Source of the DNA: a virus
Taxonomy: Duplodnaviria; Heunggongvirae; Uroviricota; Caudoviricetes
IMG/VR virus record: IMGVR_UViG_2671180524_000020
DNA length: 5,045 bases
Strand: one strand, 5' to 3'
In this document: in pieces, positions 310 to 4,877 of the stretch
How the letters are laid out: every line of letters starts with the position of its first letter
Position numbering within the stretch: the first letter of the stretch is position 1
Program-made: the position numbers and the translations under genes
Notes under the pieces: model-generated
Told to the model about the DNA's origin: nothing
Seen by the model: only the letters and a program-made list of their open reading frames with translations
Database searches by the model: none

Positions 310-1367
310 TTTCCGCCTCCTGCATCCCGTCCACGTTTGGCAGCCAGGGTCCAGCCTGATGAATGAGCTTCTCCGGGTTTATCACCGGTCATACTGTTGC
401 AGTGCCACAGCGAGCCCCCCCACGTCACCGTATCACCGGGGTGGTAGGTTTCACCGGCTCTGAACACACCGCGGTAGAGCATCACCGGCAGGGAAAATGT
501 TTTTTCCGTACGCTGGCCACTGCTCTGCCGGACCACCACAGNGAACNACCGNTCNCCNGTCATGCTGACGTCAATATCNGCCACCCCGTCAACCAGGCAT
601 TCCCATCCCCGCATCCCGTGCGTTTTTTCATACGCCCGCCAGAGTCCGCCCTGGTGTGTGGCATACGTGCCCCGGGGAAAGGATTTTTGATCGTCAATGG
701 CGGGGATTATTTCCAGTGCCGTGGCATCACGCCCGTCCTGCGGAGCCGGCAGGGCTCTCACCGCATCCAGAACAGCCTTCTGCAGAACATCGGGATCATA
801 GTCACGACCATCACGCGGAACAGGAATATGGCTTACCGCCTCTTTCACCATCTGTTCAAGCATCGGACGCACATCATCGGGGGTAATACTTTTGCCGTCC
901 GCCGGTACCGGAATATTCGCAACCGCATCATTCACCGCCTGCTTCAGTACTTCCGGATCATAATCACGACCGTCACGCGGAGCAGGGATATGGCTTACAG
1001 CCTCTTTCACCATCTGCTCAAGCATCGGACGCACATCATCGGGGGTGATACTTTTGCCGTCCGCCGGTACCGGAATATTCGCAACCGCATCATTCACCGC
1101 CTGCTGCAGTACATCCGGATCATAATCACGACCATCACGCGGTACCGGAATGGTCCCCACAGCGTCATCCACCATCGCCTGCAGAACCGGATGTACCTCA
1201 TCCACCGTCACATGCTTCTGTAATACCGCCGACAGGGAAGCCAGTTTCTCTTCAAACGCTTGTGCCTGCGCGGCCATCTTCCCCTCAAATGTGCGCTGTA
1301 AATCCGCCAGCACCGTGGAGAATTCTTCGCCCAGTGCACGAATAATGGACAGTTCCCGTTCCGTCAT
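306..1367 (-). CDS. Tandem-repeat virion-associated protein: N-terminal coiled-coil-like segment, about 7 copies of a ~27-aa repeat, C-terminal CBM5/12-like (chitin-binding type 3-like) motifs
   Basis: 353-codon uninterrupted ORF. Its ATG (1367..1365) overlaps the portal TGA (1366..1364) as ATGA, and its TGA (308..306) overlaps the next ATG. Central repeats are IPVPRDGRDYDPDVLQQAVNDAVAN alternating with IPVPADGKSITPDDVRPMLEQMVKEAVSH. The C-terminal segment FRAGETYHPGDTVTWGGSLWHCNSMTGDKPGEAHSSGW follows the pattern I recall for CBM5/12 domains, with a weaker second copy (GTYATHQGGLWRAYEKTHGMRGWECL). The domain assignment is from memory, not a search. Ambiguous bases at 542..579 lie inside this ORF. 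Confidence 0.75.
   Translation of the reverse strand: MTERELSIIRALGEEFSTVLADLQRTFEGKMAAQAQAFEEKLASLSAVLQKHVTVDEVHPVLQAMVDDAVGTIPVPRDGRDYDPDVLQQAVNDAVANIPVPADGKSITPDDVRPMLEQMVKEAVSHIPAPRDGRDYDPEVLKQAVNDAVANIPVPADGKSITPDDVRPMLEQMVKEAVSHIPVPRDGRDYDPDVLQKAVLDAVRALPAPQDGRDATALEIIPAIDDQKSFPRGTYATHQGGLWRAYEKTHGMRGWECLVDGVXDIDVSMXXXRXFXVVVRQSSGQRTEKTFSLPVMLYRGVFRAGETYHPGDTVTWGGSLWHCNSMTGDKPGEAHSSGWTLAAKRGRDAGGGK
542..579. other. Cluster of six ambiguous base calls (n) inside the repeat-protein gene
   Basis: Single n at 542, 547, 552, 555, 558 and 579, giving X residues in the translation between the two CBM-like motifs. The n at 579 is a wobble position (GCN = Ala). Confidence 0.9.
794..1200. repeat. 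In-frame tandem direct repeat, 162-bp unit, two near-identical copies plus a diverged partial third
   Basis: Unit 1 (794..955) and unit 2 (956..1117) align with about 9-10 mismatches in 162 bp; the ~80-bp segment catcggacgcacatcatcgggggt(a/g)atacttttgccgtccgccggtaccggaatattcgcaaccgcatcattcaccgcctgct is nearly identical in both. A third partial copy starts at 1118, and more diverged copies extend to about 740. 162 bp = 54 codons = two 27-aa protein sub-repeats. Confidence 0.85.
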
Positions 1368-2939: not shown

Positions 2940-4877
2940 TCAGCCGCCGGACGCACTGCCGTAGTTCACTCCGGTGATCACCGCCACCGCCGCAGTACGG
3001 CGACGACGCCAGTTGATCCAGCGCTCCGCACGGATGGCCACGCTGCCTGTCTGGAACATGGAAACCAGCTCCACCGGGGACGGCGTGGTACTGTCGCCGC
3101 CCGGCTCAGACTGCATTTCCAGTGATGCCTCGCGGGACATATCCACTGCCACGCCGCCGTCATCCGCCAGATAAATATCCGGGGCATTCACCAGCACCAG
3201 CTGGTCACCCACGTACTGGGAGACAATCACCGGCAGCCCCTGGAAGGAGCCACCCAGCAGGGTCATGTCCGGGTATTCCTTCTGACCCAGCGCATTTTTA
3301 CGCATGGACAGTGCCAGGGCATTGGTGCTGGACATCAGCCAGACCGCACCGGTGGGCTGCAGGTTTGCTGCCACAAACTGTCCAAACGCAGCCTCGGCAT
3401 CCGCATCCGGGTTACCGGTTGATGCCGTGCCCTTCACATCATGGGTGATGGACGCCGGGGAGACATCTGCCACTGCGGCTTTTTTCGGGTCCACAAAGTC
3501 TGTATCCAGACGCGCCACCACCGCTTCCGCCAGCGCATTACGGACCAGTGCATCAGCAGCCGGACTGGAAAAACGGATCAATTCTTCCGTCAGTACCGCA
3601 ATGGCCGACACCTTCGCATGACTGAAGGTGATGGATTCAAAATCAAACTTCGTCAGGGGTTTTGCCTTACCCTCACCCACCCAGCCGGCAGCACCGCCGG
3701 ACACCTGGGCGTGCACACGGATATTGAATGGCACCTGACGAAGTGCAGGGATCCCGCCCTGACCAAATCGCCCGATAATGGTCTGCGGACGCAGGTAATC
3801 AATAAAGTCCTGTGCGTATTCCTGATATTCAGACAGGCTGCCTGCCCACTGCGGATCCGTGGTGGTCCCCGCGCCCACTGCCGATTTCAGGACATGATGC
3901 AGACGACTGTCATCCGGATACTGACGACGGGCCACTTCCAGGGCTTCAGATCGGACGCCTTTAGCCGCAGCCAGCGATTTGGCAAAGCGGGCGAAGCCAA
4001 TCCCCTTATCCAGTTTCTGCTCCACACGGATCACCGGCGCAGAAGCCACCGCGGCCACATTCCCGTTACCGGCCTGTTTCACCGGCTGCGCCGTGGCGGC
4101 CTTACCGGCTTCCAGTTCACGCAGGCGCTTCAGGTGCGCATCCACCTGACGGATTTCCGCTGCGGTGTTGTCGTAATGCTCTTCCTCCTCCACATCCAGC
4201 GTGCGCCCTTCCTCTGCGGCTTTGGTCATGACCTCCTCAAGGGAGGCTGCCAGCGCTGCACGCTTGTTTTCAAAACTTTTAATCTGTTCGCCAATATTCA
4301 TTATGGTCTTTTCCTTATGAAAAACGGTTGTTGACTGTGCCGCAGCGCCGGCAGAAGATGCGATTTTCACCACCGGTTTCCGGTTGCCGGACGCGGCAGA
4401 AAACGGGCGGTCGTAAGATTTAATGGTCCGGATGGTGCATTCCGCATTCGCGGGCACGGTGACGGCAGACACCTCCATCAGTTCCCAGCGCAGAAAATGC
4501 AGTCCGCCTCCGTCCAGAAAGGTGTATTCATGGGGACGGAAGCCCACGGACAGCCCCCTGACCAGCCCGGTCTTAATGGCCGCCCAGACCTCATCCAGCC
4601 GGGCAGCCAGTTGCGACGGCATATCCGGTACGGGCTTCACCAGTGTTGCCGTGATTTCCAGCCCTTCGCTGACCCGGCGCACCGTACACTGCCCCACCGG
4701 GCGGGAATGGTCATGCTGCCAGAGAAACGGGATCGCACTGCCAAACTCCGCGCCCTCCGGCTCCAGGATGTCACCATCCCGATCCGGAGAAGGCGTTGAC
4801 GCAATCCCGGTGATCACCCGTTCATCCTCACTGAAGGATTTCACCGTCAGCAGGGAACAGGCCCGTTTAAGAGTCAC
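2940..4877 (-). CDS. Prohead protease / scaffold-like coiled coil / HK97-fold major capsid protein in one ORF
   Basis: 645-codon uninterrupted ORF with GTG start at 4877..4875. N-terminal ~160 aa carry motifs I associate with HK97-type prohead proteases (peptidase S78/U35): GDILEPEGAEFGSAIPFLWQHD, GLSVGF, LMEVSAVTVPANAECTI. Residues ~190-290 are charged and helical (EQIKSFENKRAALAASLEEVMTKAAEEG...LKRLRELEAG), like a scaffold or delta domain. The C-terminal ~350 aa have an HK97-like capsid pattern (AAGWVGEGKAKPLTKFDFESITFSHAKVSAIAVLTEELIRFS; QGLPVIV...DMSREASLE). Confidence 0.88.
   Translation of the reverse strand: MTLKRACSLLTVKSFSEDERVITGIASTPSPDRDGDILEPEGAEFGSAIPFLWQHDHSRPVGQCTVRRVSEGLEITATLVKPVPDMPSQLAARLDEVWAAIKTGLVRGLSVGFRPHEYTFLDGGGLHFLRWELMEVSAVTVPANAECTIRTIKSYDRPFSAASGNRKPVVKIASSAGAAAQSTTVFHKEKTIMNIGEQIKSFENKRAALAASLEEVMTKAAEEGRTLDVEEEEHYDNTAAEIRQVDAHLKRLRELEAGKAATAQPVKQAGNGNVAAVASAPVIRVEQKLDKGIGFARFAKSLAAAKGVRSEALEVARRQYPDDSRLHHVLKSAVGAGTTTDPQWAGSLSEYQEYAQDFIDYLRPQTIIGRFGQGGIPALRQVPFNIRVHAQVSGGAAGWVGEGKAKPLTKFDFESITFSHAKVSAIAVLTEELIRFSSPAADALVRNALAEAVVARLDTDFVDPKKAAVADVSPASITHDVKGTASTGNPDADAEAAFGQFVAANLQPTGAVWLMSSTNALALSMRKNALGQKEYPDMTLLGGSFQGLPVIVSQYVGDQLVLVNAPDIYLADDGGVAVDMSREASLEMQSEPGGDSTTPSPVELVSMFQTGSVAIRAERWINWRRRRTAAVAVITGVNYGSASGG

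Follow-up and report, generated by a model that had tools for sequence, protein, structure and literature searches.

In the head modules typical of HK97-like tailed phages, such as those of HK97, phiKO2, Moraxella phage Mcat20 and Bacillus phage Gamma, the gene for the large terminase subunit (TerL) is followed by a small open reading frame (ORF) and then by separate genes for the portal, the prohead protease and the major capsid protein; this order is typical of such modules, not formally defining. Single genes that encode maturation protease and capsid as one fusion have been described in Arthrobacter phage clusters AM, AU and AN (PMC5513430), and Asadulghani et al. remarked in 2009 that the head-gene organization of the prophages of Escherichia coli O157 Sakai differs from that of lambda (PMC2669165). 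Here we analyze a 5,045-nucleotide stretch of IMG/VR virus record IMGVR_UViG_2671180524_000020 (Caudoviricetes; this whole stretch is hereafter called the window), in which a protease-capsid fusion gene lies upstream of the portal gene. We consider it very probable that the window stems from a lambdoid E. coli prophage of the BP-4795/2851/1717 type (long-tailed and Shiga toxin (Stx) phage-like), being the head section of its late operon, and that the gene order of the window is fixed and ancestral in a large HK97-like lineage.

All long ORFs of the window lie on the minus strand and, in the order of transcription, they encode the end of TerL, a 645-amino-acid (aa) protease-scaffold-capsid fusion, a small protein of 73 aa, the 454-aa portal, a repeat-containing protein that we call X, the head-tail connector and the start of the head-closure protein. 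The canonical succession of TerL, portal, protease and capsid is therefore absent, and TerL, protease~capsid, small ORF and portal stand in its place. An earlier note, made from the letters of the window alone, had placed a capsid fusion gene upstream of a portal gene, and profile searches bear this out. The fusion protein matches Peptidase_S78 with 34.7 bits (cut-off 21) and Phage_capsid (PF05065) with 52.7 bits (cut-off 24.2), and it matches phrog_617, 'major head protein', over its full length. A search of the PDB with the fusion protein as a single sequence gave no match; a profile built from an alignment of 30 diverse family members (alignment A1) finds major capsid proteins of known structure. 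Two residues, His55 and Ser110, do not vary in that alignment, and by analogy with HK97 gp4 they would be the catalytic residues. The 454-aa protein, whose failure to match portal models the note had named as fatal to its claim, matches Phage_portal (PF04860) with 266.7 bits (E=3.5e-79) over profile positions 2-321 of 321, so its identity as a portal stands; it also matches the solved HK97-family portals 8cez (HK97), 8fql, 6tba (RcGTA) and 9lbn. The gene upstream of the fusion, which the note could not name, is that of the large terminase, because annotated records are collinear with the window and share its order.

Close relatives of the window are abundant. A megablast search found it in 1256 of 5426 complete E. 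coli genomes, with at least 80% of its length covered in 1244 and a median of 4 matching places per genome, and 94 phage records carry it, mostly those of Stx1a- and Stx2c-converting phages. These relatives share 94-98.5% nucleotide identity over 95-99% of the window. One annotated order recurs in the records of NZ_CP077565, Lys8385Vzw, Stx2_EH1910, BP-4795, 2851 and 1717: HNH, the small terminase subunit (TerS), TerL, capsid fusion, 73-aa ORF, portal, X, head-tail adaptor and head closure, and then, towards the tail, an HK97-gp10-like gene, tail completion, major tail, chaperones and tape measure. As the window breaks off within TerL and head closure, the genes on either side are seen only in such related records. 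Lys8385Vzw is an induced cos siphophage with long-tailed virions visible by electron microscopy (PMC7946995). The same order is found in a Salmonella prophage locus with precomputed Pfam labels. At the protein level, fusion proteins 98-100% identical to that of the window are present in E. coli, and homologues of about 645 aa with 73-78% identity occur in Salmonella, Enterobacter, Klebsiella, Serratia, Pantoea and Kosakonia.

The order extends far beyond these genera. A scan of cluster representatives returned 1181 clusters (50% identity) of fusion-family homologues at E<=1e-30, and the top 150 representatives are mostly full length, with 38-54% identity. With a single protease peptide pattern we retrieved 80 loci from GTDB species genomes (35-58% identity), mainly of Alpha-, Beta- and Gammaproteobacteria, with a few metagenome-assembled genomes labelled Flavobacteriaceae, Phycisphaerae, Clostridia and Actinomycetales; these were annotated by ORF calling and iterated hidden Markov models for TerS, TerL, protease/capsid, portal, X, connector and head closure. 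TerL is followed by protease/capsid and then by portal in all 75 loci with enough downstream DNA to be judged, usually with X, connector and head closure behind, and a portal gene upstream of protease/capsid was found in none of these 75. The protease (~200 aa) and the scaffold-capsid protein (~465 aa) are separate genes in 20 of the 80 loci; the order is unchanged in all 20 and is therefore independent of the protease-capsid fusion. When the portal was compared with phage genomes by tblastn, identity dropped from 37-41% (Ralstonia and Burkholderia phages and Pseudomonas phage PAJU2) to 30% or less, and the two genomes of the latter group that were opened, phiKO2 and Mcat20, follow the canonical succession of TerL, small ORF, portal, protease and capsid. 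Homologous capsid or portal genes are also present in FSL SP-016, IME307 and phages of Ralstonia and Burkholderia, a finding on homology and not on gene order. Synteny across annotated phages, complete chromosomes and distant loci thus supports the first of the two readings that the earlier note had offered, a distinct phage lineage, since each related locus long enough to be judged has the order and isolated phages agree. Its other reading, a module rearrangement, holds in part: a rearrangement did occur, but long ago, and it has become fixed; it is not peculiar to the window.

Table 1. Features of the window, by position (strand - is the complement of the strand given; strand. marks a feature without strand).
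Feature	Position	Strand	Evidence
Head-closure (Hc1) gene start, running off the window	1..35	-	sequence; collinear with annotated 'phage head closure protein' (NZ_CP077565)
Head-tail connector (gp6-like / Ad1) gene, broken by the N-run	45..309	-	collinear with annotated 'head-tail connector protein' / 'head-tail adaptor Ad1'
Run of 50 N (scaffold gap)	201..250	.	sequence
Protein X ('repeat protein'), 353 aa; ATG overlaps portal stop (ATGA)	306..1367	-	phrog_1289
CBM5/12-like (chitin-binding-like) C-terminal module of X, approximate limits	333..485	-	
Tandem repeat in X: 162-nt (54-aa) unit, 2.3 copies, 91% matches	775..1151	-	
Portal protein gene, 454 aa, HK97 family	1364..2728	-	PF04860; phrog_2271 and phrog_12; solved portals
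G5 tract, five codons before portal stop	1379..1383	-	sequence
73-aa ORF, phrog_829	2674..2895	-	ORF call, PHROGs
GC-rich hairpin, 9-bp stem, 4-nt loop, 15 nt past capsid stop, no T-run	2904..2925 (22 nt)	-	RNA fold
Prohead protease - scaffold (delta-like coiled coil) - major capsid fusion gene, 645 aa, GTG start	2940..4877	-	Pfam, PHROGs
HK97-fold major capsid domain (Phage_capsid), aa 386-635	2973..3722	-	Pfam; profile match to solved major capsid proteins
In-frame internal start: Shine-Dalgarno-like AAGGAAAAG 4316-4308, ATG 4301-4299 at aa 193; predicted 453-aa scaffold-capsid product	4299..4316	-	
Peptidase_S78 (HK97-type prohead protease) domain, aa 48-152	4422..4736	-	Pfam
Terminator-like hairpin, 7-bp stem, 4-nt loop, then T-run, between TerL and fusion gene	4899..4916	-	consensus scan, RNA fold
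TerL gene 3' end, 34 codons + TAA	4941..5045	-	sequence; collinear with annotated 'terminase large subunit' in NZ_CP077565, Lys8385Vzw and BP-4795

Before the order is read as a property of a lineage, it has to be asked whether it could be an accident of this copy. Besides its 50-N gap the window holds six further single Ns within 542-579, inside the C-terminal domain of X, which together suggest a draft assembly with several near-identical prophage copies collapsed, and the multiplicity of matching places in E. coli genomes invites such collapsed repeats; the capsid-portal junction might then be a chimera in which two prophage copies were joined. All the non-ACGT positions, gap and single Ns alike, nevertheless lie at 201-579, far from the junction, and there is no N or other ambiguous base in 2650..2960. 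Positions 251-5045 align to the complete E. coli O111:H8 chromosome NZ_CP077565 as a single high-scoring segment pair with 98.5% identity (the N-run stands for 112 nucleotides of that reference), which confirms the contiguity that the note had claimed, and the identical junction runs uninterrupted through more than 1200 complete E. coli genomes (1244) as well as sequenced phage genomes. The misassembly that the note had allowed for is thereby refuted, and we put its chances at next to nothing. It is likewise very improbable that the order is a recent rearrangement or decay product, a non-functional layout in a defective E. coli prophage. Many O157 prophages are indeed defective, portal or head functions having been scored as defective in the Sakai prophages Sp6, Sp9 and Sp12 and as intact in Sp10 (PMC2669165), and the Prokaryotic Genome Annotation Pipeline (PGAP) marks the portal of the split form as 'frameshifted'. 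However, inducible or propagated phages have this order as well (Lys8385Vzw, with its virions, PAJU2 and Burkholderia phage vB_SBP39), and so do all 75 judged distant loci from three proteobacterial classes and other phyla; the ORFs of the window are all intact apart from the Ns, and the frameshift flag comes from comparison with fused references, the split form being ancestral (see below). The contrasting scores of Sp6, Sp9 and Sp12 and of Sp10 may simply reflect split and fused states of portal and X.

A further possibility is that the swap is adaptive, in that placing the capsid gene first and behind it an attenuating hairpin would set a high capsid-to-portal ratio and hence keep the order fixed. 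There is a strong hairpin past the capsid stop across the lineage: over 81 loci its mean z score against shuffled sequences is -2.58, with 63% of the loci below -2, and a comparable signal is absent past the stops of TerL, portal, X, connector and head closure (mean z 0 to -0.7). The hairpin is kept by position and not by sequence, and T-runs follow several of its versions, for example in loci L010, L018 and L022. It is the cross-locus comparison alone that is significant, as RNA folds of the whole window around its two hairpins do not differ significantly from shuffles (z -0.55 and -0.86). The hairpin fits transcript attenuation or 3'-end protection that would favor capsid over portal. However, phiKO2, with its canonical order, also has a putative terminator-like hairpin after its capsid gene; the hairpin therefore belongs to the capsid block and is not an explanation of the swap, and canonical-order phages achieve the same stoichiometry without any swap. 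We accordingly regard an adaptive swap as unlikely, though it deserves to be kept in mind. The second hairpin of the window, between TerL and the fusion gene, sits inside what is presumed to be a single late operon; it is not lineage-wide, the mean z past the TerL stop being -0.68 and the gap in relatives usually measuring 10-25 nucleotides.

Several points weigh against the reading that we prefer, an old order fixed throughout a lineage. Relatives without the protease peptide pattern, possibly with another order, fall outside the sample of 80 loci. The source is a draft with a gap and ambiguous bases, so that several prophage copies may have been collapsed into the consensus given here. The roles given to the hairpin and to the internal start described below derive solely from conservation. 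Finally, since the hairpin of phiKO2 shows that this element travels with the capsid gene, it does not by itself explain or reward the swap.

The fusion gene itself carries a second conserved signal, an in-frame ATG between its protease and scaffold parts. An ATG occupies this alignment column in 58 of the 62 single-ORF fusion genes, and 56 of those 58 have a Shine-Dalgarno-like motif 3-17 nucleotides upstream, against a background of 21-22% at other codons. In the 20 split loci, the separate major capsid genes begin at exactly this column. The fusion gene therefore probably yields two chains, a 645-aa protease-scaffold-capsid protein and a 453-aa scaffold-capsid protein, as far as conservation of the start can tell. 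Some distant members of the family (P0243, P0252 and P0381) have altered or extra N-terminal domains; in two of them an AAA ATPase domain of about 440 aa precedes the protease-capsid part, and in the third a ClpP-type protease replaces S78. Representatives of about 1090 aa were considered as portal-protease-capsid fusions, which would have hinted at the canonical order, and were rejected because they carry an AAA ATPase domain and no portal.

Of the 75 judged loci, 70 have protein X behind the portal. This protein consists of a long N-terminal helix, 54-aa tandem repeats, a beta domain and a C-terminus resembling CBM5/12, and its lengths among relatives (245, 299, 353, 407 and 461 aa) differ in steps of 54 aa; in homologues from Paraburkholderia and others, collagen repeats replace the helical ones. 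The AlphaFold model of a 245-aa E. coli X (mean predicted local distance difference test score 75.9, above 90 in the C-terminal domain) likewise begins with a long helix, continues with helical repeats and ends in a domain rich in beta structure. The Pfam model CBM_5_12 scores 21.1-23.3 bits on X (aa 303-325), below its gathering cut-off of 26.2, and precomputed PF02839 matches exist on many X homologues. Foldseek superposes the last ~50 aa on the chitin-binding domains 2rts and 2d49 with a root-mean-square deviation of 1.7-2.0 Å and a probability of 1.0, albeit with E-values of only 0.05-0.1, and an X profile matches the chitin-binding domains of chitinases in the PDB with E=1e-4 to 3e-3. Our best guess from these models is that X would form a fibrous, glycan-binding appendage of the virion at the head or neck. 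Database entries name it 'portal protein', 'gp6-like head-tail connector, partial' or 'carbohydrate binding domain protein', and it is widely mislabelled under the first two of these.

In the window the portal/X junction reads TTC AGG GGG ATA CTG AGA AAA TGA, with five consecutive Gs (G5), and X starts within the ATGA. A sixth G (G6) fuses portal and X into one 859-aa ORF; many database proteins read ...FRGDTEKMTERE... and phrog_2271 is built on this fused form, which is why PGAP, faced with reference proteins of the G6 type, calls the split portal frameshifted. Exact pattern scans of IMG/VR contigs found 31 with G5 and 39 with G6; a count in complete E. coli genomes with megablast queries of 80 and 81 nucleotides was dropped, as neighboring single-nucleotide polymorphisms confound it. 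Among the phages, 2851 has G6, 1717 and Stx2_EH1910 have G5, and the annotations of BP-4795 and Lys8385Vzw show split ORFs. The two states mostly follow clades, and they appear to interconvert within clades less than 1% divergent: at least five G5 copies stand inside G6 clades at this level, which may reflect recurrent slippage or homopolymer sequencing error. Salmonella has no G tract (AGA GGA TTT), the tract is also absent in other genera, and the frame of the portal/X overlap differs among genera (-1 or +1); the split, translationally coupled form is therefore ancestral. For the same reasons, a G tract specific to E. coli and a varying overlap frame, we rejected a conserved programmed ribosomal frameshift at this site. 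It is rather improbable, though conceivable, that in E. coli phages the tract is a functional switch between portals with and without a fibrous, glycan-binding X extension. Such a switch would act through heritable slippage, possibly together with a -1 slip of the ribosome on A-GGG-GG, ahead of the rare codon AUA; in the 0 frame the tract is surrounded by rare codons (AGG, AUA and AGA).

The 73-aa ORF between capsid and portal is a genuine and conserved gene, with homologues sitting immediately ahead of the portal, as in the window, in at least 46 loci. Its overlap with the portal start measures 55 nucleotides in E. coli and usually 4 (ATGA) in relatives. Members of the family (alignment A4) share an N-terminal domain of about 38 aa and have a tail, basic or helical, which in some relatives looks like a helix-extension-helix (Rho_N-like) motif.

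These observations can be combined into a working model of the locus. The genes run TerS, TerL, [protease-scaffold-capsid and hairpin], [small ORF, portal], X, connector and head closure. Their products are ordinary HK97-family proteins whose assembly would be expected to proceed as in HK97; with standard parts packed tightly on a single strand, one late transcript and assembly in the manner of HK97 are the natural assumption, and all genes would be co-transcribed from the late promoter. The full-length protease-scaffold-capsid chain would bring the protease into the prohead, and the internal start would supply the 453-aa scaffold-capsid chain, probably the majority of the subunits. Afterwards the protease would cut away itself and the scaffold part. 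The post-capsid hairpin would probably limit or stabilize transcript 3' ends, leaving capsid in excess over portal and neck proteins, and the small ORF, portal and X would be translationally coupled through their overlapping stop and start codons.

The novelty that the earlier note had suggested was overestimated. BP-4795, 2851, 1717 and PAJU2 are published phages, classified by the International Committee on Taxonomy of Viruses, whose records contain this order, so the layout is already known; it has stood in public annotated phage genomes for two decades, and the remark on the Sakai prophages dates from 2009 (PMC2669165). Our search of the literature for the swapped order or the fusion in this lineage yielded little beyond the Sakai remark, the paper on Lys8385Vzw and the Arthrobacter fusions; no discussion of the swapped order across the lineage came to light, nor does the Virfam paper bring it up. 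What is lacking is commentary and not knowledge. As stated, the finding matters little, being the correct reading of a well-populated and already annotated lineage. It does mean that gene order alone is poor ground for flagging these prophages as rearranged or misassembled, and that misleading labels (X as portal or connector, the split form as 'frameshifted' or 'pseudogene') can make intact prophages, including relatives of Stx phages, look defective. The nested start, the capsid-linked hairpin, the mislabelled X and the G-tract toggle are modest leads.

The closest known systems are phages BP-4795 (Marienburgvirus), 2851 and 1717 (Pankowvirus) and Lys8385Vzw, which have the gene set and order of the window, share 94-98% nucleotide identity with it and differ from it only in the number of 54-aa repeats in X (245-461 aa in total) and in their G5/G6 state. 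The Sakai prophages Sp6, Sp9, Sp10 and Sp12 of O157 belong beside them; elongated-head particles (44 x 95 nm) with a 147-nm flexible tail and an unassigned lambdoid origin have been seen in Sakai culture supernatant (PMC2669165). At about 37-41% protein identity, Pseudomonas phage PAJU2 (Detrevirus) shares the order TerS, TerL, protease/capsid, small ORFs, portal and connector, has X, and carries a gp03 annotated 'prohead protease fused capsid protein', but it has two small ORFs before the portal where the window has one. Burkholderia phage vB_SBP39, equally distant, also shares the order; its protease and capsid are two genes and it is without X.

A more distant parallel is offered by the nested C and Nu3 genes of lambda, where one frame gives two head-assembly products by way of an internal start. 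The fusion gene resembles them in that one reading frame appears to give two head products; it differs in that the nested product of lambda is a scaffold inside the protease gene, the capsid being encoded by a gene of its own. The canonical phages named at the outset use the same families as the window (S78 or an equivalent protease, an HK97-fold capsid, a PF04860 portal and a gp6-like connector), with portals at most 30% identical to its own, and like the window they have a small ORF just before the portal. The small ORFs of phiKO2 and Mcat20 show no detectable similarity to alignment A4 by hhalign, and the proposal that small ORF and portal moved as one homologous block therefore relies on position only. 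Relative to HK97 or phiKO2, two intact blocks have changed places, and the simplest description is an old swap of [small ORF-portal] and [protease-capsid-hairpin] that became fixed in a large lineage. With the same parts and two blocks swapped, this lineage and the canonical HK97-like phages form a natural comparison for the effects of gene order on expression or assembly.

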